DNA of 64,000 nucleotides from a virus: IMG/VR virus record IMGVR_UViG_3300023210_000017, positions 1 to 64,000 of that record, one strand, 5' to 3'. Under the pieces are notes generated by a model. That model had not been told where the DNA came from, searched no databases, and was given only the letters and a program-made list of their open reading frames with translations. The stretch's first letter is position 1. The number at the start of each line of letters is the position of its first letter. Made by a program: the position numbers and the translations under genes. Shown piece by piece: positions 27,101 to 38,455 of the stretch.

Positions 27101-27876
27101 TTTGTCCACCAGGTCCTGATCCAGATTCAATAGTTACTCAATCTGGTACTTGTGATAATGTTTATCTTGCTGGACCAAATGGAGATCTAACTTATGTAAA
27201 TCCAGATCCAGCACGTTGTACTTTCAATGCACTACAAGAAGAACCTGCTAATTTTAAAATAGGAGGCATCTGGAGACATAATTATAGATGTGATTTATTT
27301 GCAAACTATTATAATGTAGATTATCCATGGGAAGTAGAGCTTATAGAAAGTACAGGTCAAAATGTATTTACAGTTAGAAGTCTTGAATACCAATTAGAAA
27401 GCTATGTTTATAAAGGAGATTTATTTAATGGCTGTAGTGATGATAGATGGCATGATTTAGATTTTAACTTTGATGAATCAATTATATATAATACAGAGCA
27501 AGTATCTGGATTATTAAAGTTAAATTTAGATCCTGTAGGAAATCCTTTAGCTGGATTAACTTATCCTATTATAAATAGTAATGATATAGATATATTATAT
27601 TCTAAGGTAGAACAGAAATATAGATTTAATCAATTTTGGGATGTTACTAATGACAGAGGTGAATTTACAAATGCAGAACAAGAAATACTAATGACTCAAT
27701 GTAATGGTTATATTAGAGATCTTAATTCTGCTAACTTAAACTACAATAAAGCGCAAGGCCAACGTAAAAAGTTCAGACACTATTATAATAAGATTATCCT
27801 AAGAAGAGTTCTATCAAATAATAGAAAAATGTTATTGAAGTTAAATAACACTAAGTTAAATTTATCATATAGATAA
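21193..27876 (+). CDS. tail stabilisation/muzzle protein (P22 gp10-like) with Cys-rich insertions
   Basis: 2227 aa; N-terminal FSKGMQKD...ARNA, FMRDEVYSF, WTVSYDP...WISFHDW motifs typical of crAss-like muzzle proteins. Confidence 0.8.
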   Translation: MAKKKKSNPPSNSGSQVETNSFSKGMQKDIYSGLVPKEQWGHARNAANNSVDGDIGIIGNEPANIECAKVPYTIIGAIHRYGDQWVIFSTDDTSSEIGLFDDSKCEYDLLVNDPCLNFNRKYLITGASKENYDCTWQIYWDDGNNPSRTLNIDDIPYIQEVVSAPGADCILYEDTSVLNCEKIRLAPLMDVPCVKLTKAKDGGQLRNGSYRAYIAYTVNEQKVTDYIGVSNIQALFSHDINGGSLDIEISNLDKNFEYYELVILSDNQGQKDARKIGIYSTEQFNISIDFIDPALTAIGVELLFSRSPAYEKSESMYVVNDWLIRQGPTEQFDFNYQPLANKITTNWVVAEYDANYYFKGGNETQFMRDEVYSFFIRWIYNTGEKSSSYHIPGRPPSASAKNQFQQSMSSGGDIGTAPGISLGDPEYNFQIFNTAEATQAQGGPGTPTGNGGTIIQRGTMAYWQSTEKYPATKPEIWDSSYVDPITGVNIGDTSNPNFDLCGKEIRHHKMPTEETHPSLHLSAGNGSTIRLLGVEFSDITRPRYNDGTYIENIAGYEILRGSREGAKSILAKGLFRNMREYEIPDQDGNTLGPTKGLYPNFPYNDLRDDVYHYDGSRANQSGNFGGSGPGYNLFAVDPLPRTDGCADGLYGPTNNKASLTKFPPLTGFRRDVFTFHSPELMFRKPFLNPYEIRIYGAVSGVSEGHFIKSEKHPQNKLLRNAGALIAGILGTGYAINQLQGTQETVVESAENAGAPYLPAWVMGGFGSSGSNFLGYNSYAAAAAAAQGANSGANSGFQIALQEATKLTDLFGAGGATSDGAQKVFGIAQAAIVSPGMVSGDIQTKYVKDSDTSGLNIIFKALLGFINSGAQIAIGAQKVIDLLYNLVSPEDFAYKHNSAGLFANYHKTREGTTFRARNNLSNYIGNVFQNFNPNSINAANNTLANQFKINNLFRPDTVAIQSHIDLPIPNGPNGLGAPADRSRYVIGGDSQGNADPGWMANPEGKQYKPISALYGALKFNFENQYGQLDGIKQVVMNDCIYEIDLERPERALYSTGPIFTGDTYVGRYSEKVIMPIFSDFLLGQPDQFPYNYLQRINIPYPRYWMDTRKFDTSKWANLLNIIGQGILGTGGAMQNLLPNDLFYLDRGENNCVTGLDSVLGNDDDGNSLFAMKVGAMYTHCNGVLDFFVESEINLANRDWDNTPQGRHYDNFRYQAYDEMFHAEIVKEDNVYKYDYSLSASRFLTNLTKGAGNVQPRDYNPQIAETCFSHYPKRLIYSLQSQKEAKKDFWRVFLVNNYRDFKNPVNVIKPINKNGAIIFFPYQSPQMFQGIDTLETTDYNTKITIGDGGLFSQPFQNLVNSDISNEYGSCESQRGVINTPYGFFFISQAQGKVFQQKGQGLNAISNNGMKWWFNKYLPSNLIRQFPELEFSELADNTVIGVGCQITYDITDDIMYVCKKDFELKEEWLGQVIFDTEEDCFVILDNISNPNDSHSIPAKSVFKTTLMYVCPDCNTLVGGFANGITTFDASDQQGCFDAAEKGCGSDVPPPTPVKTCIDIGDPLYFDDCSWTVSYDPKVEAWISFHDWHPELCLSSINHFLTTKTGITDDPQCPPNFVYNSVTGNCERLIDETVNAVVSVDEIPTVGEGCPDGFTFNPISGECENIVIFDINCAGSEEVVAATPSAEYGKFGARFYTDVISESSLNLPVEAFGSSFGTNNTYELQYSNGTTYEFDNFQSPPIVPVNPYNNPLWSGAGGRLNAGGVWTGLPNDGNGCFAPPCGEWIGFTQCIELPATKTYCVGIAADNQVRFTINGTIIVHLDGNDGRNFYNWHVIPIALNAGVNIITLEGYNQASIASFAAEIYDATPLELANMTTVAELEPVIVFSTENTIDNGFFQVGETVGCDCPNGGVLSNCTGELQCVEIETSPLVSGCDCPEGYTLVYWNQVEQNFTLPTGDCIDDEIPPICRKVECICPPGPDPDSIVTQSGTCDNVYLAGPNGDLTYVNPDPARCTFNALQEEPANFKIGGIWRHNYRCDLFANYYNVDYPWEVELIESTGQNVFTVRSLEYQLESYVYKGDLFNGCSDDRWHDLDFNFDESIIYNTEQVSGLLKLNLDPVGNPLAGLTYPIINSNDIDILYSKVEQKYRFNQFWDVTNDRGEFTNAEQEILMTQCNGYIRDLNSANLNYNKAQGQRKKFRHYYNKIILRRVLSNNRKMLLKLNNTKLNLSYR

Positions 27877-30800
27877 TGGAAAAGAAGTATAACAATAAGG
27901 AGAGTAGAGGTTTGCCTGGTGGACCTAATGAAGTATTTTCATATGTGACAGGTGTATTTTCTACAGATGGATATAGAAGTGATAGCCAAGATGTAAATAA
28001 TCCTTTTAACGTTATACCTTCAGGCAACATTACTATGAAAGAACGAGATGGTAGACCTTTAAGGAAGGGTCCATTATTAGGTGTTGATAATTTAGGCAAT
28101 AAGAAAATAATGCGTCCAGGCCAAGACTATCAATTCCCCGGTGATGAAGTTACTGAGATACCTATGGCACAAGATGGTAAGACTCTTAGTATGGAAGATC
28201 AAGTTTATTCAAGGTTTCCTGCATTAAGAAATATGGGTGAGGTTACATTTAAAGCTGATCCTGAATTTACAAGGGAGGCTACAGGTGTTGGAGATATAGA
28301 ATATTTTGGTCCTGGAGAAGATAGAACTCAAATAACATATCCAAATAATTTTGTTTATAAGCATCCAAAAGTAGGTACACATGGTATTGTTTATAATCCT
28401 GAAACTAATAATGCTCAAGCTATAGCTTTAGACATGCTACATGGCTTAGGTAAAGATGATAAGAATTATGAAAAACTTAGAAATGAGTTTGGTGAAAGTT
28501 ATATGAACTCTATATTCAGAGAAGATTTTGAAAGAGACGTTAAAATGTTTAAAGAAGAAATTGGTGAAGATAAGTTTAATGAATGGTATGATGATGATAA
28601 AGATTATTTCAATCAGAGTTATGTTGATGGTATTATACGTAATTTACTTTTTGAAGGATCTCCAGAAGATTTTAAAGAATCTAGATATTGGGAAGGGGCA
28701 AGAGAAGGTTATTTAAGTCAACCAGAACTAAAAGAAACATTTAATGCTTTAGAAGGTTATCTAAAAACACCAACTGAAAAGCATGGTGGATCAATAAAAG
28801 AAAATGCAGATAAAGAAAATAGTAAGTCTATTTTATATAACTGGGAAAAGCCAAAAACTCCTGTTATGAATAGACAAGCTGCTATGCCAGATTGGTTTAA
28901 GTATGGTGAATTACTAGCTAGGAGTAAAGAACCTACAGGTAAAGGAGGTTACGCTTTTCAAACTAACATAGATATGCCCACCAAAAAGATTCCTGATGGT
29001 AATATGGATCTCAGAGGGATTGGAGTTAACTATAAATTTCCTATAGGTAAAAGTTGGAACGTCAATCCATCTGCTAATTTAACTAATGTGCAAGGTAGAG
29101 GTTTTGGTAATCAAAAATTATATTCAACTACAATACCTGGAGCAGGAATAGGTTTAAACTTTAAGCCAAATAAAAATTCTAATTTAAGTTTAGGTTTAAA
29201 TATGAGTTCTGTTATAGGTAAACCTATTAATAACGAATTTTCTAACGCAAAAGCTACCATCAAATATAATTTTAAAACAGGTGGTGATTCTCCTGAAGAA
29301 AAAGCATGGATGTCTGAATATAAGTTTACAGATGCTGATTTTGATTTTTTAAATAATGATAAATCATATTGCCCTAATGGTGGATGTTTAAAGCAAGCTC
29401 AAACTGGTACAGAAACTGAGGCCACAGAACCTGCTATACCTAAAGAGGAATCCTATATGGGAGATCTTTTTATTTCAGGTGTAGATTTAGAAAAATTAAA
29501 TTCAACACCTGATTTAGATATAAATGAGCTGCCTGAAGAGTTATGGGATAAACAGGTTGGAAGAGGAGACTCTAAAACCTATAAGCAAGTGGCAGATGAC
29601 AATAATGGAATAATTCCATGGAGGTATCTTGACACAGAAGAGAAACGTTTAGCTAATCAATATTATTGTACTACAGAGGGAGGTTGTTTAGCAAGCTCTT
29701 ATAATGCATATGATGCGGTAGTTGGTCAAAGATATCCATCAAATGAATTTTTATCTGAAGCAAAATTAAAGGAATCTTTAGGGCTTCAAAGTGCAAGTAA
29801 AGAGAAATTGGGTTATCCATATTATGATGATGGCGTATTAATGCAACAGGATCCTGATAAGTCAAGTGGATTTACACCTGTTTCAGAAGGAACTAAAAAT
29901 TGGATAGAATCAGTACCATATTTTAAACATACTAGAGAGGGTAAAACAAAGCTTGATTTTACAGCAGATAGTTGGGATACCCATGGTGTAATGGTTGAAA
30001 ACAAAGGTAGCAATATTTTTACAGCTTCAGATGATGATATTAAAAATAACAGAAATAAGTTTGCAAATTTATCTGAAAAAGAAAAGCAAAAGCTTTATGC
30101 TCAAATGACTCCAGGTACAGTTGTATCATTTACAAGTCCTTTTGGTGCAAGTGATGGTAATTTAAGAATAGGTCTTAATGATAAGTATGGTTTAGGTAAT
30201 TCAAGTCATAGTGCTCAAGTTGTTGGTTATGCTGAAGATGGTGTTCCAATTATATTTGACTATGGTGTGTATAGACGTATAGATGATGATGATGCAGCTC
30301 CAGTATACGGTGATATGAATACTTTAAGTAACATCACTATACCTAAAGCGCATATAGGTAAAAATCTTGAATGGGCTAAGAAAAATGGTTACTTTGACAA
30401 AGAAGGACCTGGAGAATTAGATTTTGATTTAACCCCTTTATATGATGAGAAAAATGCAGATATAGATGAATTAGAACCATTTTATAATGCATTAAAAACT
30501 AACAAGCGTTCTTTAATGGATGATCTTAATATTAAATCTGAAAACTATGACATGATTGCCAAATCATTAATTGGCATAACAATGGAAGAGACAGAAGGTG
30601 GTTCTGGATTGCAACATAATATTGAAAATAAAATGTTTAGTGTAGGTCAAGACAGTATTGGATTAACTCAGCTAATGTGGTCTAACATTGAAAATGATCC
30701 TAAGTTAAAAAAAGTAGCTGCAAAATATGACATTACTAAAAAAAGTGATTTAAAAGACTCTGACAAAAGTGCTATTGCTTCCATGATATATGGGCATAGA

Positions 30801-31505
30801 AACTTTTTATCAGCTAAAGAAAATTATAAAAAGGGTAAAGGAAAGCCTGGTATAAGAACATATAAAGCATCTGATAGCTGGAAAACTACTGCTAAACAAT
30901 ATGCTTTAAAAGATCCTGTATATGATGGATATACATTTAGAACAGAAGAAGGTGTGGAAGTAGATTTCTTTACAGGTGCTAATGATGTTTGGAATCCTTT
31001 TTATGGTGTAGGTATGGATAAAAGTATAGAAAATATTCAAAGTCAATTTGAAAAAATAGCACCCGGTAAATATAAAGTACGTGAAGAAGATGGAGAGTAT
31101 GTTGTTGATAAAACTACATTGGGTAATGGTAGGATTAATAAAGAAACAGGAGAACTAGAAGATCTTACAGACTCTGAAATATTTTCATATAATTGGAATT
31201 CACCTTATAGCTTATCTTCAGGAGATGCCCAAGGTGGTGCAGCATATGTAGAGGGTATACAAAATATAGGGAATCTTATACAAAAAAAGGTTGGAGGTGA
31301 GATTGCACGTAATCAAACTGTTTTAGAAAAGTTTAATTCAGGGGGAGCTAAAGAACTTAAATTATATAAAAATTATTTTAATGGAAAGGTGAAGAATGAA
31401 AAGGCACGTAAAAATTATGATAAACTTAATAGAGTTTATTACAAAGATGCTAAGGCTAAAAAAATGTCTTCACCTAATTATATATTAACGCATGTAATTA
31501 CATAG
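27876..31505 (+). CDS. modular cargo-region protein: beta-rich module, Cys/His amidase-like and lytic transglycosylase-like domains
   Basis: IPSGNITMK...PGQDYQFPG N-terminal module; GCL...PG.VV...SHSA (CHAP/NlpC-like); EET...SIGLTQL (lysozyme/SLT-like); GG/AQxG linkers. Confidence 0.6.
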   Translation: MEKKYNNKESRGLPGGPNEVFSYVTGVFSTDGYRSDSQDVNNPFNVIPSGNITMKERDGRPLRKGPLLGVDNLGNKKIMRPGQDYQFPGDEVTEIPMAQDGKTLSMEDQVYSRFPALRNMGEVTFKADPEFTREATGVGDIEYFGPGEDRTQITYPNNFVYKHPKVGTHGIVYNPETNNAQAIALDMLHGLGKDDKNYEKLRNEFGESYMNSIFREDFERDVKMFKEEIGEDKFNEWYDDDKDYFNQSYVDGIIRNLLFEGSPEDFKESRYWEGAREGYLSQPELKETFNALEGYLKTPTEKHGGSIKENADKENSKSILYNWEKPKTPVMNRQAAMPDWFKYGELLARSKEPTGKGGYAFQTNIDMPTKKIPDGNMDLRGIGVNYKFPIGKSWNVNPSANLTNVQGRGFGNQKLYSTTIPGAGIGLNFKPNKNSNLSLGLNMSSVIGKPINNEFSNAKATIKYNFKTGGDSPEEKAWMSEYKFTDADFDFLNNDKSYCPNGGCLKQAQTGTETEATEPAIPKEESYMGDLFISGVDLEKLNSTPDLDINELPEELWDKQVGRGDSKTYKQVADDNNGIIPWRYLDTEEKRLANQYYCTTEGGCLASSYNAYDAVVGQRYPSNEFLSEAKLKESLGLQSASKEKLGYPYYDDGVLMQQDPDKSSGFTPVSEGTKNWIESVPYFKHTREGKTKLDFTADSWDTHGVMVENKGSNIFTASDDDIKNNRNKFANLSEKEKQKLYAQMTPGTVVSFTSPFGASDGNLRIGLNDKYGLGNSSHSAQVVGYAEDGVPIIFDYGVYRRIDDDDAAPVYGDMNTLSNITIPKAHIGKNLEWAKKNGYFDKEGPGELDFDLTPLYDEKNADIDELEPFYNALKTNKRSLMDDLNIKSENYDMIAKSLIGITMEETEGGSGLQHNIENKMFSVGQDSIGLTQLMWSNIENDPKLKKVAAKYDITKKSDLKDSDKSAIASMIYGHRNFLSAKENYKKGKGKPGIRTYKASDSWKTTAKQYALKDPVYDGYTFRTEEGVEVDFFTGANDVWNPFYGVGMDKSIENIQSQFEKIAPGKYKVREEDGEYVVDKTTLGNGRINKETGELEDLTDSEIFSYNWNSPYSLSSGDAQGGAAYVEGIQNIGNLIQKKVGGEIARNQTVLEKFNSGGAKELKLYKNYFNGKVKNEKARKNYDKLNRVYYKDAKAKKMSSPNYILTHVIT

Positions 31506-31534
31506 CTACGCTTATTAGCAAATATCCTTATTTA

Positions 31535-31553
31535 TTTGTATATTATTAATATA
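31535..31553 (+). promoter_or_regulatory. candidate phage promoter (TTTGTATATTAT)
   Basis: 18/19 identical to 7530..7548; 10 nt before ATG. Confidence 0.55.
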
Positions 31554-31563
31554 GATTATCATC

Positions 31564-34500
31564 ATGGATTTAAAAAGCATAAATAAAAAAAGTTTAAATG
31601 GAAAGCCATTTCATAAAATGCCAGATGGATCTTGGATGCCCGGCACAAAGCATATGAAAAAAGGCGGAGAACTTGAAGAGACTGTTGTTAGTGAAAAAGG
31701 TTTTGATTATAAAAAAATCTATGATGCTAGTTCTGGTACAACAATGTATTATACAAAACCTTCAAGAGGTAAAAATTGGAAAGATCTTCAAGATGGTAGA
31801 AACAATAGAACATTAACTGTTGTTAAAACAAAAATATTTAAAGATGATTCTTTAAAAGAATTAAAAGAAGGTGGAGATTCTGAAGAGAAATATATTCCAA
31901 CAATAGATGAAATTAAAAAAGGCGGTTACAAAGTTAAGGTAATAGCGTATGCTCCAAGTAAAAGCATGCCTCCTGGACATACAGAAGCTATACTCATTGA
32001 TAAAAATGGAAACCCTGTTGATTATTATTATGATAAAGATGATAACAAAAAAGAAGCCTTTGTAAATAGATGGGAAGAAGGAGGAGATGAAGGATCACAA
32101 TTTGATGATGATGCTGGTTGGGATAATAGAAACAAAAGCTATTTTAAATCTAAATCTATAGAAGCTTTAAATAAAAAGATTAAAGCAAACAAGTATAATA
32201 GAGCAATGGATCTAAATTTAGATTCTGATCAAATTGAAAATTTTTTAAACAGCACATCATTAGAAGGCGGCCTTGATTATAACTTCATGGAAAATAATTG
32301 TGCTGACGGTGTATGTAGAGCTTTTGGTTTAGACTCAGATAAAGTTGGAGGAACATTTGGCACACAATGGGTAGGAACAGAACCACAACAAGTATTTAGC
32401 CAATTGCAAGAAAACTATAAAGATCAAATTTCAGGTAAAGTAGTAGGAGAGCAAATGTCTAGAGAAGACTTTGTAAAACAAGCTGCGCTACTTGGAGCAG
32501 GAAATGTAGATGGGATAGGAGGTACTATATTACAAGGTATTGCAACACAACAAGTTAATGACCCGACCAGTCTTCTTAATGCAGCGGGGAATGCATACAA
32601 AGCTGGAAGATATGTAAAACAAAAACTGGAAGATTCTGCAGATTTTGTAGATGAAAATACAGATTTTTCTTCTGAAGGGGTGAGTAATTTTTTCCCTTGG
32701 TGGGGTAATACAATTAATAGCGTATTTGGAGGAGATGAAAATTATTGGAAATATTCATCTCAAAAAAGAGCAGAAGCAGCAGCTAGAAAAAAGAAACGGG
32801 ATGCAGATAATTGGGCCAACCCTGTTATAATAGATCCAACTTTAATGCAAGGTGATGAAACAAGGCAGGGCCCAGCATTTACTCAACCATTTAATTTAAA
32901 AGAAGGTGGACAATTACCTACAGCGCAAAATGGAAATGGTAGATATTCAGATTTAACTTCTAGGTATGGTAGTTATAATCAATGGAATCAAAGCAATGAT
33001 AGGTCTGTTAGAGCGCCTGTTCAAAGCGCTTATTTGCCAATGAACTTAGGAGCAAGAGGTGATGTGATAGGTGCAGTTTCCACTCTTGTTGAAGGTGCTG
33101 GAAGATTATTTGGCGGTAAAGATAGAGATGGAGATGGGCTAATGGATGGAGCTTTTAGAGATAATAAAGCTAAAAGAAAAAGACATAAAGCTAGAAGGCA
33201 ATTAGAAAAATCTCAAAACTATGATTATAAAGTTACAGCTGATCCTAATGATCCAACTAAATATGTAGATTCATCAACAAATCTTTACAATGCTAGTAAG
33301 AAAAAAAATCCTGAATCTTTGCAAACTGTTGATAGTTGGAAAGGTGAGTTAAATGAAGATAATACATTTTTAGACTTTGATGTTGCATCAAATCAATATA
33401 CGGCTAGCTATATGGATCCTGATCTTATGTCAAAAAATAAAAAACTTAGACCTACTAATACTGTTAAAGATTTTCAATCTCGTAAAGAAAAGCTGGATAC
33501 TGGCAAGTATAATGAACTTAGCTTATTAGGTCAAGATGCTGATGCATTTAATGCTGCTAATGACATACCCGAAGGTACTACATTTGGCATGAATGAAAAT
33601 GGTCAAAGTACATATTATGCGCCTAATGCACAGACAGAAGAAGAAAAAACAAATTACTATAATACAATGATGATGAAAAAATTTGGAGGACACATGCAAG
33701 AAGGTGGGCAACCATCTCCAGAAGAAATGGCAATGATGCAGGCTCAACAAGAACAAGCGCCACAACAACAAGCACCGCAAGAAGGTGGTGAAGAAGCTGT
33801 AGTTCAACTTATGGAAGAAATAAAAGGAGCTCTTGAAGGTGGTGCTAAACCACAAGAAGTAATGGTGCAGTTAATACAAAGTGGTATGCCGCCTGAATCT
33901 GTGGCTCAAGTATTTGTACAATTAGGAATGCCCGAAGATCAAATAGGTCCAGCTATAGAACAAGCAATGACTCAAGCTCAAGGTCAGCAAGGCGCTGAAC
34001 CTTCTGAAGAAGAAATGATGGCGGCTCAACAATCACAAGCTGGAGCACCTGCTCCACCAATGATGAGATATGGAGGTGGAGATTCACCTTTTGCGGAAGC
34101 ACATCCATTGTCTGCATTTGCATATGGTGGTGATAACGATTATGTTGAAACAGGAGAAGGACTTTTAGATGAAGATAACTTTATTAAAACTAAACGTAAA
34201 AGAAATGGAAAAATTAAACAAAAAGAAATTTCTGAAAAAAGATTTAATAGAATTCAAGATAGATATGAAAGAAAAGGTGGACACGATGGTGGAGATAACC
34301 CCAATGTAGATAACACTGTTAATAGAAGAGGTAATAAAAGTGTTTCTGATATGAATGCTGGAATACCTTGGGAAGATTATACACGACCTAGCTTGATAAG
34401 ACCTCAGTTAAGAACTCCTTATGAACGTCCACTTGCTATGGTTGAACCTGACCTAATATTTGATGATCCTTCAACTATAGAAGCACCAGCATTTAATGCA

Positions 34501-35337
34501 ATGCAAGAGTTGAATAGTGCTGATGCTCAATACTCACCGACCCCTTCTTTTATTAGTAGTTCTGATCCTATGGCTGCTGCTATGGCAGCAGATGCTACAA
34601 GTACTCCATCATTTGCATATGGTGGTCAAGCTCAAGATGGAACTGAAATAAATCCAGCACAATTTGCAGCTGAACAAGATACATATGCAGCATCTGAAGG
34701 AGATCCTATGGCTCAACAAATGATGCAAGAGTCTAATCCACAAGGTGGTTCTGGAGATTTAATTCAAGAAGTTTTAGCAGCTTTATCACAAGGAGTAGGT
34801 CCAGAACAAGTATATACTAAAATAATGGAAATGGGCATTGATCAAGAGCAAGCTGGTCAAATTATACAGCAAGCTATGGCAATGATGAATCAAGGTGGAC
34901 CAAGTAATCAAGCGCCTGCTGAAGATGATGGATATGCTCAAATGCTTTCACAGCTTCAAGATCAAAGAGATTCTTTTAAGAATGAATATAGAAGAGATGT
35001 AAATAAATTAGGTGGAGGTGCAGCTATGCAAAATGCTCAGAATGGTACTGGTAGAGTTGTAAAATCAGACACAACTAAAACATCTAAATTTTGGCCTAGA
35101 GAAAAAACATCTGCTATTTTTAATGAATTTCTTGGACAGGGTTATAGTGCAGAAGAAGCTAGAAATAACATATACAATATGAATGTAATCTCTGAAAAAG
35201 ATTATGATTTTGTTAGAGGGTTGGGAGCTAAAAAGAAAAAATTAAAGAAAAGAGGTGGTCAATCAGATTCTGTAGAATTAACTACTAAGCAAATTGCTCA
35301 AATAATCGCTGCAGGTGGCAGTGTTAAATACGTATAA
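31564..35337 (+). CDS. modular cargo-region protein with permuted papain-like peptidase domain and Gln/Met-rich repeats
   Basis: PPGHTEA...YNFMENNCAD; HKMPDGSWMPG; DRDGDG; many xxGG / AQxG linkers. Confidence 0.55.
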   Translation: MDLKSINKKSLNGKPFHKMPDGSWMPGTKHMKKGGELEETVVSEKGFDYKKIYDASSGTTMYYTKPSRGKNWKDLQDGRNNRTLTVVKTKIFKDDSLKELKEGGDSEEKYIPTIDEIKKGGYKVKVIAYAPSKSMPPGHTEAILIDKNGNPVDYYYDKDDNKKEAFVNRWEEGGDEGSQFDDDAGWDNRNKSYFKSKSIEALNKKIKANKYNRAMDLNLDSDQIENFLNSTSLEGGLDYNFMENNCADGVCRAFGLDSDKVGGTFGTQWVGTEPQQVFSQLQENYKDQISGKVVGEQMSREDFVKQAALLGAGNVDGIGGTILQGIATQQVNDPTSLLNAAGNAYKAGRYVKQKLEDSADFVDENTDFSSEGVSNFFPWWGNTINSVFGGDENYWKYSSQKRAEAAARKKKRDADNWANPVIIDPTLMQGDETRQGPAFTQPFNLKEGGQLPTAQNGNGRYSDLTSRYGSYNQWNQSNDRSVRAPVQSAYLPMNLGARGDVIGAVSTLVEGAGRLFGGKDRDGDGLMDGAFRDNKAKRKRHKARRQLEKSQNYDYKVTADPNDPTKYVDSSTNLYNASKKKNPESLQTVDSWKGELNEDNTFLDFDVASNQYTASYMDPDLMSKNKKLRPTNTVKDFQSRKEKLDTGKYNELSLLGQDADAFNAANDIPEGTTFGMNENGQSTYYAPNAQTEEEKTNYYNTMMMKKFGGHMQEGGQPSPEEMAMMQAQQEQAPQQQAPQEGGEEAVVQLMEEIKGALEGGAKPQEVMVQLIQSGMPPESVAQVFVQLGMPEDQIGPAIEQAMTQAQGQQGAEPSEEEMMAAQQSQAGAPAPPMMRYGGGDSPFAEAHPLSAFAYGGDNDYVETGEGLLDEDNFIKTKRKRNGKIKQKEISEKRFNRIQDRYERKGGHDGGDNPNVDNTVNRRGNKSVSDMNAGIPWEDYTRPSLIRPQLRTPYERPLAMVEPDLIFDDPSTIEAPAFNAMQELNSADAQYSPTPSFISSSDPMAAAMAADATSTPSFAYGGQAQDGTEINPAQFAAEQDTYAASEGDPMAQQMMQESNPQGGSGDLIQEVLAALSQGVGPEQVYTKIMEMGIDQEQAGQIIQQAMAMMNQGGPSNQAPAEDDGYAQMLSQLQDQRDSFKNEYRRDVNKLGGGAAMQNAQNGTGRVVKSDTTKTSKFWPREKTSAIFNEFLGQGYSAEEARNNIYNMNVISEKDYDFVRGLGAKKKKLKKRGGQSDSVELTTKQIAQIIAAGGSVKYV

Positions 35338-35338
35338 T

Positions 35339-38300
35339 ATGCCTAAAATAAAAAATACAAAACATAGAGTTTTAATATCTAATCTTCCTAAAGGGTTTGA
35401 ATTAGTTGATGGTGAATTAGTAAAAAAAGCACATGGTGGTTTAGTTACTGGAGATCAACATAACTATGGTTTAGTTACATTTAATCCACACGCAGGTGAT
35501 TCAGAAAATGATAGAGATGTAGATGTAAGATATAGTTTATCTTCAGTGCCTAGAGATGCTGCTAATATAGAAGCTGAAGGAGGCGAGACTGTATTAACAG
35601 ATCTTACTAATGATGGTAACTATGGATTGTATGATATAACAGGACCTAAACATTCTAAAGGTGGTGTACCAATGTTCTTACCTGAACAATCTTTTATTTT
35701 TTCTGATACAGAGAAGATGAAGATGGATAAAACAGAGCTTGCTGAATTTGGAATTGAATCTAAAAAGAAGATGACCCCAGCTAAGGTTTCTAAAAAGTTT
35801 GATTTAAATAGATACTATGGTTTATTAAATAGTGAATATGCAGATAAGACACAGGCAAATTCTGCAGAACTTATGCTTACAAAAAATTCAGAGTCTCTTT
35901 CTAAATTAGCATTTGGTCAAGAATTGAAAAAGGATTTTGAAGAAGGTGTTCCTGTAGCAGCTCATCCATATCTTAATTCTATTGGTATAGATCCAATGGA
36001 GTTTACTGCACAAGTAGAACAAAGACAACAAGGTGGCCAAGAGCAAATGGGTGAAATGAGATATGGTGGTATATTACGTAAAGCACAAGTGGCTGGACCT
36101 GCTCCTTGTCCAGAAGGACAAGAATGGGATGATGCTGTACAGGCGTGTGTATTAAAAGAATCAACAAGCGAACAACCAAATGGTCCATTTGCTCCACAAA
36201 ATCAATATACTTCTTCAGCATATTCTGAGTATGAAAATGATGACATAAATGATGGTACTTTACCTGCAAATCCTGGACAATTTGGACTTACTCGACCTGA
36301 AACTCCTGCTGTTGAAACTCCTACTTATGGAGCGCCAACTGTAGAAAGAACAAATAAAAAAGGAATGGGTGCAAGAATGGAGCAAGGATTAGATAGATTT
36401 ATGGATAGTCCTGGAGTGGATAAATTTGCAGAAATTGGATCTTTTGGTGTAGCAGCTGCAAATGTTGGGAATCAAATAGCTCTTAATACTAAAGGTGAGC
36501 AAGCTAAACAAGATATGCTGAAAATGAGCATGGTAGATAATTCCGTTGGTGTTGTAGATTATGATCCAAATGCTCTGGGGTACACGGGTGTACAAGAAGG
36601 TCTTATAAATAAAACCCTGCAAGGTCAAGGTCCTTCTGGATATAATGGTTACTATGGAGAAGATGGGATGGAAATACCAAAGGCTCAAGAAGGTACAGAA
36701 ACTGGATATTATGATGTTATGGGAAATTGGTACCCTATTGATAAACCATTATCTACCGGAACTGATTTTGCTATGGTAAATGGATTTAGTGCAACGAAAG
36801 AAGAGTTAGATCAATTTGTAATAGATCAACAAGCTGAATTTGATAGACAAACTGCAGAATTAAACGGTACTCCAGCAAAAGCAGAACAACTATGGGAATC
36901 AGGCAAAACATATAAAGGTGGTTCTCCTGAATGGAATCAATGGTATATGTCTGATAATGCTGAACAATATAGAGATGATAGATATACTGCATATAAAGCC
37001 CGTAGGGAATCAAAAGGTTTAAAATCTTTAGATGCAGATGCTTACCACGATATATATCTAAGAGGTCAAAAGCAAATTAATGCTATACAACAAAGGTATG
37101 AAAGTGATCCAACTACTTTAACAGATAAAAAGTGGGATGCAACTCAAAATGATTTCTATAACGAGCAGATTGACCTTTTAAATGCAGATATAGAAGCTGC
37201 AAATACTGCAGGTCTAGCAGCAGATCCTGACTATAAAGCAAAACCTTTATATAAAGGATTATCTGATAGTGAGGTTGGTGATTTTCAATCAGGATATATA
37301 GGAGGAAAGTTTCTTCAATCTAATATTGGCGGTACTTCAAAAGATTTAGTAGACATGATTCATAAAGGTGTCAATGATCAAACTGTTAATGTAGGTGCTG
37401 ATACTTATAACATATCACCAGAAGATAAGTGGTTTGGAGATACAACGGTTGGACAATGGGAAGAAAAAACAATACCCACCTATAATGAAAAGACTGAAAA
37501 ATGTGAGTGTGAATTTGAAGGTCAGACATTTGAAATGACACCACTTAATGATGGCGGCTGCCCACCATGTCCTGAAAAAGAGCAAAAAATATTAGATGAT
37601 GCAGAAGTACCTGAAGAAATAGCACCTACTGCAAAGGTTCCTTTTATACAAGACATTTTAAAGTTAAGATCTATTGCAAATAGGAAAAGAGATTTATTTT
37701 TACCATGGGAACCTGCTGAACGAAAGGTACGGTATGAAGATGTATTAGAAGATCCAACTAGAATAATAGCTGCTGCAAATTCAGATGCTAATGCAGCAAT
37801 GCAAGCAGCTGGAGCATTTGCTGGACCACAAGCTTTAGGAGCAAGAACTGCTGCTATTCAAGGTCAAAATGCTAGAGCTATTGCAGATCAAGTTGGAGCA
37901 GTTAATCAAAGAAATGTTGCAACTATTAATAGAGGTAATGCAGTTAGAGGTCAATTTGAAGATTCATATAATCAAAGAAGTAATGCTAGCAATAAAAGAG
38001 TATATGATAATACTATGAAAGCCCTTCAAATAGGAATGGATGAGCAAAACTTTGATAATGAGCAATATATAGATCAATTGGGTAATACAATTACAAATGC
38101 ATCACATGCATATAATGATAACTCATTGAGAGATTATTATGGTTATAATCCTTTAAAAGGTGGAGATGTATATCAAAAAGGAAGCAAAGCTTTTAAACCT
38201 GTACCAGAAGTAGATAGATTTGCACATGTAGATAAAGCTGGTGAAATAGCAAAGCGTTATAGACTAGCTACAAATTCAGAACCATCTAAAGAAATGATGA

Positions 38301-38455
38301 ATTATTTAATGGGTATAGAATCAAGCAAAAAGTCAAATTCAAATGAAACATATGCTCAGAGAGAAAGAAGAAATGAACAAGGCGCAAGCAGAAAAAAAGG
38401 TGGAGCAATGAAAGCATGGGCATCTCCATTTTACACAGGAAAGATGGGTGTTTAA
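35339..38455 (+). CDS. conserved crAss-like cargo protein
   Basis: NIEAEGGE...GPKHSKGGVP...FIFSD domain; helical Ala/Gln/Asn-rich C-terminus; ATG 35339 follows the upstream stop. Confidence 0.6.
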   Translation: MPKIKNTKHRVLISNLPKGFELVDGELVKKAHGGLVTGDQHNYGLVTFNPHAGDSENDRDVDVRYSLSSVPRDAANIEAEGGETVLTDLTNDGNYGLYDITGPKHSKGGVPMFLPEQSFIFSDTEKMKMDKTELAEFGIESKKKMTPAKVSKKFDLNRYYGLLNSEYADKTQANSAELMLTKNSESLSKLAFGQELKKDFEEGVPVAAHPYLNSIGIDPMEFTAQVEQRQQGGQEQMGEMRYGGILRKAQVAGPAPCPEGQEWDDAVQACVLKESTSEQPNGPFAPQNQYTSSAYSEYENDDINDGTLPANPGQFGLTRPETPAVETPTYGAPTVERTNKKGMGARMEQGLDRFMDSPGVDKFAEIGSFGVAAANVGNQIALNTKGEQAKQDMLKMSMVDNSVGVVDYDPNALGYTGVQEGLINKTLQGQGPSGYNGYYGEDGMEIPKAQEGTETGYYDVMGNWYPIDKPLSTGTDFAMVNGFSATKEELDQFVIDQQAEFDRQTAELNGTPAKAEQLWESGKTYKGGSPEWNQWYMSDNAEQYRDDRYTAYKARRESKGLKSLDADAYHDIYLRGQKQINAIQQRYESDPTTLTDKKWDATQNDFYNEQIDLLNADIEAANTAGLAADPDYKAKPLYKGLSDSEVGDFQSGYIGGKFLQSNIGGTSKDLVDMIHKGVNDQTVNVGADTYNISPEDKWFGDTTVGQWEEKTIPTYNEKTEKCECEFEGQTFEMTPLNDGGCPPCPEKEQKILDDAEVPEEIAPTAKVPFIQDILKLRSIANRKRDLFLPWEPAERKVRYEDVLEDPTRIIAAANSDANAAMQAAGAFAGPQALGARTAAIQGQNARAIADQVGAVNQRNVATINRGNAVRGQFEDSYNQRSNASNKRVYDNTMKALQIGMDEQNFDNEQYIDQLGNTITNASHAYNDNSLRDYYGYNPLKGGDVYQKGSKAFKPVPEVDRFAHVDKAGEIAKRYRLATNSEPSKEMMNYLMGIESSKKSNSNETYAQRERRNEQGASRKKGGAMKAWASPFYTGKMGV

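Follow-up and report, generated by a model that had tools for sequence, protein, structure and literature searches.

One conserved short peptide motif joins interchangeable cassettes in the cargo-slot proteins of uncultured phages with a crAss-like gene layout

In polyvalent proteins, which phages and conjugative elements deliver along with their DNA, one large polypeptide strings together many unrelated effector domains (Iyer, Burroughs, Anand, de Souza, and Aravind 2017, PMC5512222). In crAss001, the portal and the tail barrel each bind separate segments of the cargo protein C1 (gp45), according to an atlas that does not mention cleavage (Bayfield et al. 2023, PMC10172136). Packing several megadaltons of protein and pushing them through a narrow tail is an open problem for podovirus-like phages (crAss001, PMC10172136; N4, PMC13434306). 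Here, we describe a short peptide motif built around GG and AQxG in three consecutive open reading frames (ORFs) of the IMG/VR virus record IMGVR_UViG_3300023210_000017. The window, which is the whole stretch of DNA that was analyzed, is the first 64 kb of this contig of 93,688 bp from an uncultured marine phage (guanine-cytosine, GC, content ~32%). The three ORFs, referred to as slots 1, 2, and 3, are the places for variable cargo in a large family of uncultured phages whose genomes measure 90-120 kb and have a crAss-like gene layout, and the slot products are probably carried in the phage particle. In each slot protein, the terminal domains are conserved and enclose interchangeable cassettes, chiefly enzymes acting on the cell wall and other effectors. 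The cassettes are joined, and the proteins often begun and ended, by one conserved short linear motif, an observation that is both real and general. Full-text literature searches for the peptide and related terms returned nothing relevant, and no published description of the motif was found.

Enrichment, consensus, and spread of the motif

A preliminary description, made from the letters of the window, had listed GG and AQxG elements in the three ORFs and read them as a recurring linker between modules. Every element on its list was found where it had been placed. The proteins and their motif copies, with coordinates in the window, are as follows:

27876..31505, plus strand: slot 1 protein P0001, 1209 amino acids (aa), with a conserved N-domain (1-~97), variable cassettes, and a conserved C-domain (~1150-1209)
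27906..27923, plus strand: RGLPGG, a Lys-rich N-terminal leader ending in GG, kept as (E/S)RGLPGGPNE at slot-1 starts
28161..28178, plus strand: PMAQDG, closing the conserved N-domain
28776..28790, plus strand: EKHGG junction
29271..29285, plus strand: FKTGG junction, directly behind a beta-barrel-like module ending in ...KYNF
29376..29408, plus strand: NGGCLKQAQTG, a composite GG...AQxG junction
31284..31298, plus strand: KKVGG junction before the conserved C-domain
31564..35337, plus strand: slot 2 protein P0002, 1257 aa, with 12 homologs
31654..31668, plus strand: MKKGG, N-terminal motif, with G34 and G35 conserved in at least 90% of homologs
31876..32568, plus strand: predicted permuted papain-like cassette (NlpC/P60, H-box/NC-box type), with His139 and Asn245-Cys246
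32896..32934, plus strand: LKEGGQLPTAQNG, a full composite motif, with G448 and G449 invariant in 13 sequences
33673..33708, plus strand: MKKFGGHMQEGG, a tandem motif, with G709 conserved in at least 90% and G714 invariant
34063..34080, plus strand: MRYGGG junction, with G837 conserved in at least 90% of sequences
34612..34641, plus strand: FAYGGQAQDG composite
35008..35046, plus strand: LGGGAAMQNAQNG composite
35245..35334, plus strand: KKRGG, then a conserved C-terminal tail (helix-GG-strand; SVELTTKQIAQIIAAGGSVKYV)
35339..38455, plus strand: slot 3 protein P0003, 1038 aa, with the N-domain (1-235) and C-domain (750-1038) conserved and the middle variable
36056..36097, plus strand: composite motif MRYGGILRKAQVAG, preceded by the N-domain and a linker rich in Q, M, and P
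36671..36694, plus strand: EIPKAQEG motif
38390..38404, plus strand: RKKGG near the C-terminus, with G1021 invariant in 24 sequences

Enrichment of the motif over background was borne out by 2000 composition-preserving shuffles within each of the three proteins. AQxG occurs 7 times in the three ORFs against 1.35 expected, a count reached in 1 of the 2000 shuffles. The narrower AQ[DNET]G (6 observed, 0.36 expected) and the spaced pair GG-x(1-7)-AQxG (5 observed, 0.08 expected) reached their observed counts in 0 of 2000. GG dipeptides number 47 against 30 expected, chiefly owing to ORF 31564 (26 against 11.4), and the pattern [MLFKR]-x-[KREQYFHVT]-GG was found 17 times with 3.1 expected. Outside the three ORFs, the 93.7-kb genome encodes ~26,400 residues with no occurrence of either AQ[DNET]G or GG-x(1-7)-AQxG, and this genome scan confirmed that capsid, fibre, and RNA polymerase (RNAP)-type genes hold no comparable series. 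We then drew on 314 IMG/VR relatives obtained from a slot 3 alignment; the locus counts given here rest on 80 loci of these. The density of PxAQxG in the 80 loci is 0.91, 0.91, and 0.21 per 1000 residues in slots 1, 2, and 3, compared to 0.00-0.03 in flanking genes. ORF 31564 is rich in G, Q, and A and much of it is predicted to be disordered, as would be expected if the motif were a product of chance or of the composition of Gly/Gln/Ala-rich low-complexity linkers. That explanation is extremely improbable: it is refuted by the shuffles that never reached the AQ[DNET]G or GG-x(1-7)-AQxG counts and by the slot specificity in the 80 loci, and the motif positions are conserved in orthologs.

The idea of an xxGG / AQxG linker held as far as recurrence is concerned. 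As two separate linkers it did not, since variants of both kinds share one alignment position. At the end of the slot-1 N-domain, this single position carries PMAQDG, PMAKNG, PMAKRGGG, LMAKMGGG, PQMQFGG, or PLKKEGG in more than 100 homologs. Judging from these alignments, xxGG and AQxG are halves or variants of one motif. Its consensus, drawn from ~300 distinct AQxG contexts in homologs and 134 from related loci, is [KY]-G-G-[EDS]-[LI]-P-[KM]-A-Q-x-G-x-E, with conservation over about 12 residues. The commonest full form is [KY]GGxLPKAQxG, and Phi-x-x-G-G and P-M-A-Q-x-G are short forms. GG lies within the 14 residues before AQ in 39% of cases compared to 11% in the background, and the spacing peaks at 4-5 residues. 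A long form, (L/V)E(L/V)TxxEIxxLxxGGYxVEEL-PKAQxG (helix-GG-strand), is found internally in slot-1 homologs. Truncated, it makes up the slot-2 C-terminus, xxGG-E-x3-VD-x3-LAKLIAAGADIEIL, which in this phage is SVELTTKQIAQIIAAGGSVKYV.

For P, A, Q, and G, codon choice in 82 distinct instances of the motif does not differ from the background of the genes concerned, which indicates selection on the peptide and not on the DNA. A DNA recombination site or a recoding signal was thereby ruled out.

The motif extends beyond the immediate relatives. A strict back-translated DNA pattern for GGxLPKAQxG was found in at least 120 IMG/VR stretches. Among the matches listed, 144 of 148 lie in open frames and carry the typical [KRQ][KYF] prefix, often with two or three copies per gene. 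Some are in large low-GC ORFs that show no detectable homology with this phage. The same pattern matched 596 Gb of prokaryote genomes about as often as estimated for chance; those matches lie mostly in high-GC DNA, and only 51 of 121 are in an open frame. Together, the chance-level prokaryote matches and the in-frame IMG/VR matches indicate that the motif is essentially a phage feature. Five low-GC contigs in metagenome-assembled genomes of Rickettsiales, Clostridium, and Bacilli (L238, L242, L263, L293, L302) carry a genuine-looking motif, e.g. RYGGDLPKAQTG. These are probably mis-binned phage contigs and therefore cannot be relied on to assign a host.

Cassette exchange at the motif

The part of the preliminary interpretation that stands is that these proteins are strings of modules swapped as cassettes at the motif; its suggestions for the role of the motif, cleavage or docking, are weighed in the next section. 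Ortholog alignments of all three slots agreed that modules are gained and lost exactly at the motif. Between motif copies lie wall hydrolases, a zinc ribbon, a helical mini-domain, and a permuted papain-like domain, and L113, L137, and L140 are examples with multiple cassettes.

Between slot 1 and the majority of its 298 homologs, similarity is restricted to residues 1-~105 and ~1130-1209. The middles of these homologs contain LysM, YkuD, SLT, GH24 lysozyme, chitinase, SET, ART-PolyVal (PF18760), PF18762, and zinc ribbons. The N-domain alignment stops within 6 aa of the motif in 105 of 143 distinct homologs, and one to three xxGG copies stand immediately before the C-domain. Essentially every slot-1 cassette junction carries a copy of the motif.

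Two modules of the slot 1 protein of this phage showed faint resemblances. The module at 28791-29285 (residues ~306-470) has a weak outer-membrane beta-barrel likeness (OMP_b-brl, E 0.009; DUF6850, E 0.001) and ends in ...ATIKYNF, like the C-terminal signature of outer-membrane proteins, right before FKTGG. On this likeness, it may be a membrane-inserting cassette. Residues 131-190 (28266-28445) gave non-significant phmmer matches (E 0.4-1) to ubiquitin-conjugating E2 enzymes. Here, YKHPKV...AIALDML lines up with YHPNI...ICLDIL of E2, and Ala replaces the catalytic Cys. This could be a UEV-like cassette or chance.

Across the 80 loci, slot 2 proteins have in common only a core (residues ~476-620) and both termini. 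Conservation was counted in a 13-sequence alignment. The motif glycines G34/35, G448/449, G709, G714, and G837 are invariant or nearly so, and their flanks are not conserved. Six homologs have a helical mini-domain inserted exactly between MQxGG and the next MAQDG, and P0006 and P0008 have a Cys...His module between two copies of (M/K)AQDG at the FAYGGQAQDG site. The ending xxGG-E-x3-V-D-x3-LAKLIAAGADIEIL is found in slot-2 proteins from about 60 loci, and the leader in relatives is the Lys-rich LNKKSLKQQGG.

Several further observations were made on the slot 2 protein and on the slot ends. A helical mini-domain of ~50 residues occurs in two copies, at 33790-33990 and 34750-34890 (residues ~744-806 and ~1063-1110), with Q/M/P/E-rich linkers on its flanks. 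It is also N-terminal in most relatives' slot-2 proteins (VDPxVxQIxxFIxxSxxxGxxPxEV...), and VIA returned only generic helical bundles for it (Z about 6). The C-terminal tail (35269-35334; L003-L082) is nearly invariant as GGE-x3-VD-x3-LAKLIAAGADIEIL, and the N-termini LNKKSLKQQGG in slot 2 and ESRGLPGGPNE in slot 1 are also kept. By their conserved ends, the three cargo proteins may couple head to tail.

Predicted structures cover slot 2 only. The AlphaFold2 model of residues 1-1200, built from the 13-sequence alignment, has a mean predicted local distance difference test score (pLDDT) of 41, with 73% of it low-confidence and confident islands at 38-73, 109-313, 646-686, 750-806, and 1066-1108. 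The motifs had been said to lie at fold boundaries. The nine slot-2 sites listed all have pLDDT below 50, and several are within 6 residues of the edge of a confident domain; because 73% of the model is low-confidence, this is weak support when taken alone. Foldseek searches with the full-length and domain models of slot 2 gave nothing at E≤0.001.

The island at residues 105-335, folded alone, reached a pLDDT of 73 and a predicted template modelling score of 0.76. Its top five VIA matches were all permuted papain folds: TseH (Z 7.7, root-mean-square deviation 4.2 over 136 residues), YiiX (6.5), MARTX RID (5.9), Aichivirus 2A (5.4), and 3kw0 (5.3). The next match, at noise level, had Z 4.2. H139, N245, and C246 are invariant in the 13 slot-2 sequences, with the His upstream of Asn-Cys on the papain-like fold. 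The permuted papain folds and these invariant residues point to an H-box/NC-box enzyme of the NlpC/P60 type, which is plausibly a wall hydrolase or an acyltransferase effector. The PF05903 profile (C97, PPPDE/DeSI) had no match in the contig, and DeSI is not among the fold matches listed for the cassette. The cassette was found in 7 of the 80 loci, with 28 representatives among 1.84 billion proteins, and is too rare to serve a motif found in all these phages. It was therefore ruled out as a general processing enzyme. The same cassette occurs, bounded by the motif, in the 2689-aa slot-1 protein of L140. In the model, the first helix, GG turn, and strand of the cassette (IDEIKKGGYKVKVI, pLDDT 81-93) are placed so that the strand joins the domain sheet. 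IDEIKKGGYKVKVI is, by this prediction, the long form of the motif built into a fold and the only confidently modelled instance of the element.

For slot 3, homologs carry [RK]YG[RK]ELPKAQxG at the position of MRYGGILRKAQVAG. The longest slot 3 ORF starts from GTG at 35315, and the homolog start MxKVKINNLP fits the ATG at 35339. A 1044-aa database entry for this protein would begin at 35321.

Breakpoints that coincide with the motif might be explained without any partner, if the motif were a passive hinge and recombination seam, a flexible Gly turn conserved only through the success of exchange. The papain-like module, which sits in slot 2 here and in slot 1 of L140 with the motif on both sides, agrees with such a seam, and a beads-on-a-string design has been proposed for the N4 virion RNA polymerase (PMC13434306). 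However, a hinge has no need for L-P-K-A-Q, and the background codon use means that no DNA-level sequence is preserved across the family. The peptide is also kept between otherwise unrelated proteins and in the phages without detectable homology to this one. We consider a mere hinge unlikely.

The slots lie among seven very large plus-strand ORFs downstream of the major head protein gene (phrog_11589). The first of the seven encodes a 2227-aa virion structural protein (phrog_37948 and phrog_15100). Slots 1-3 follow, and then ORFs of 1119, 5201, and 1901 aa. The order of a large 2227-like virion protein, slots 1, 2, and 3, a 1119-like protein, and a giant RNAP-bearing 5201-like protein is common to the 80 loci, and in 52 of 59 loci the 2227-like gene and slot 3 are separated by exactly two genes. 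No natural gene split at the motif was found among related loci. The contig is rated 81% complete, and neither a portal nor a terminase was recognized on its 93,688 bp. Head-assembly genes, potentially including the partner of the motif, may sit in the absent part.

The three whole slot proteins and eight sub-regions gave nothing significant against Pfam and PHROGs. Megablast and tblastn against 50,697 GenBank phage records found no relative of any slot protein, and PDB sequence searches returned only low-complexity matches or matches at E>0.1. Metagenomic relatives number 298 proteins for slot 1, 12 for slot 2, and 732 for slot 3.

Recognition or cleavage

We lean, tentatively, toward the motif being a partner-recognition peptide, that is, a docking or threading handle for a putative partner, for which cleavage would not be needed. 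The motif would be bound by a conserved component of the virion interior or channel, or by another cargo protein, through strand addition beside the Gly-Gly turn. The idea of a turn with an added strand comes from the helix-GG-strand of IDEIKKGGYKVKVI in the slot 2 model. Any cassette placed between two motif copies would still be packed and then threaded out as beads on a string. Since the motif is the only conserved sequence between unrelated cassettes, we propose that it would also be where recombinants survive. To judge from the alignments, a role as packaging signal would more likely fall to the strictly conserved terminal domains of the proteins than to the short motif by itself.

Several findings were counted in favor of recognition: the slot specificity of the motif, the breakpoints and insertions that fall on it, the selection at the peptide level, and the lack of gene splits. 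The enrichment within the genome, the in-frame matches in IMG/VR, the predicted helix-GG-strand of IDEIKKGGYKVKVI, and the GG-flanked portal-bound domain of crAss001 C1 were counted on the same side. No recognizable protease was found in five complete relatives, and the only embedded peptidase-like domain is a rare cassette. A conserved length of about 12 residues exceeds what is usual for a protease site and is typical of binding peptides. The motif is also kept at extreme N-termini (MQEGGQ..., MGGQ..., M-Lys-rich-LPKAQxG), where a cut would free only a few residues.

Other points speak against recognition. The partner of the motif is only putative, and the motif sits in stretches modelled at low confidence and probably disordered, which would be just as fitting for a protease site. 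K-rich N-terminal leaders that end in GG or PKAQxG look like the cut-off capsid-targeting leader of T4 internal proteins. Among large eukaryotic DNA viruses, Gly-Gly-X polyprotein processing is established in adenovirus. The same holds for pp220/pp62 of African swine fever virus (ASFV; PMC10308890).

These points lead to a second possibility, that the motif is a proteolytic site and the slot proteins are polyproteins cut after GG and/or AQxG(xE), which would release each enzyme where it is needed. The cleaving agent would be either an unrecognized phage head protease or a host protease acting after ejection. A motif copy at essentially every slot-1 cassette junction, tandem copies, and the location in flexible segments are all in line with cleavage. 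So are the Lys-rich N-terminal leaders, which close with the motif in each of the three slots as well as in divergent phages. Wall-acting enzymes are mixed with ART- or kinase-type domains that are expected to be cytoplasmic, some family members carry HExxH or papain-like cassettes, and processing by embedded peptidases has been proposed for polyvalent proteins (PMC5512222). However, the C48, C5, C97, and MPTase-PolyVal profiles (PF02902, PF00770, PF05903, PF18818) had no match in this contig, and S77, S78, ClpP, C48, C39 (PF03412), and MPTase-PolyVal (PF18818) had none in five relatives rated 100% complete. This absence rests on Pfam profiles and is weak evidence because these genomes match few of them and very divergent members may escape. 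The papain-like cassette, in its 7 of 80 loci, most resembles wall hydrolases and acyltransferases in fold. Protease sites are typically shorter than the stretch conserved here, and copies of the motif persist at extreme termini, where nothing would be gained by a cut. The crAss001 proteins gp47, gp49, and gp50 are full-size on a gel, though these proteins do not have the motif. Taken together, cleavage seems to us possible but doubtful.

As a peptide of 12 residues at every cassette joint in hundreds of uncultured phages, the motif offers a concrete and mutable handle on the ejection problem. It predicts where passengers can be inserted or removed, and also that a conserved partner, whether docking site or protease, exists and could be fished out. 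It also explains the free shuffling of wall-degrading and host-modifying enzymes. In metagenomic phage genomes without a match to any known family, it is a practical marker for cargo genes. A bolder proposal, which we regard as speculative and rather unlikely, is that [KY]GGxLPKAQxG is a universal plug-in cargo address, such that any cassette flanked by it would be loaded and threaded by a conserved partner or freed by a putative protease. If true in the protease version, this would be the first Gly-Gly polyprotein maturation system in tailed phages. In either version, it would be a natural portable tag that delivers arbitrary enzymes into bacteria.

Comparison with known systems

The slots occupy the same genomic place as crAss001 C1 (gp45) and C2 (gp46), between the large tail/muzzle protein and the RNAP-associated giants. 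The gp45 protein is mildly GG-enriched, and its portal-bound domain (PF25725, 424-555) is flanked by NAFGG and MFAYGG. Unlike the slot proteins, gp45 does not show the LPKAQxG half, and it is not described as varying in its cassettes. A language model gave a score of 0.92 for slot 3 against a crAss001 cargo protein, which is a lead only. No sequence homology of slot 3 to gp45 was detectable; hhalign and BLASTP were not significant. PF25725 (crAss_CARG1) had no match at E≤10 to slot 3 residues 1-250 and none in the six-frame translated genome; as a control, it recovered crAss001 gp45 at 2e-66.

The crAss001 gel was analyzed by comparing the published matrix-assisted laser desorption/ionization peak lists of bands 1-10 (Shkoporov 2018, PMC6235969 supplement 14; NC_049977, our L083) with predicted tryptic masses. 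Band 3 (~270 kDa) matched gp47 and gp50. Band 4, which is the ~150-kDa band if numbering starts at the top of the gel, matched gp49 with 25 of 31 peaks and peptides over residues 46-1336. Bands 5-9 matched the portal gp20, gp26, gp22, gp25, and gp23. The gp47, gp49, and gp50 matches indicate that the RNAP-associated cargo is intact in crAss001 virions. For gp45, 5 peaks matched compared to a decoy mean of 4.3, and it was not placed on the gel. At this decoy level, the gel is silent on cutting of the GG-bearing cargo.

Relative to the adenain consensus, the hydrophobic residue of the phage motif is one position further from GG. The systems of adenain and of ASFV pS273R, which acts on pp220/pp62 (PMC10308890), resemble the slots in having internal virion proteins with repeated Phi-x-G-G-type sites at product boundaries. 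They differ in needing a clan CE cysteine protease; none was detected here by profile. Double-glycine leaders exported through C39 peptidases are also different, since PF03412 is absent from the five complete relatives and the leaders here are Lys-rich and not of the LSxxELxxIxGG type.

In T4 internal proteins and phiKZ/SPN3US inner-body proteins, a short leader likewise sends arbitrary passengers into the head, from which they are ejected with the DNA. An account of SPN3US describes its inner-body proteins as cut by the prohead protease (PMC10052503). The T4 and phiKZ-type leaders occur solely at the N-terminus, and an S77-type protease cuts them off after Glu. In contrast, the motif here is internal and repeated, and the five complete genomes have no S77, S78, or ClpP match.

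The proposed hub of the polyvalent proteins, the zincin MPTase, was undetected here, where HExxH cassettes are only sporadic. The description of polyvalent proteins (PMC5512222) includes no conserved junction peptide, and the words 'linker' and 'glycine' occur in it 0 times. What slots 1 and 2 share with the polyvalent proteins is the joining of many unrelated effector or enzyme domains in one phage polypeptide.

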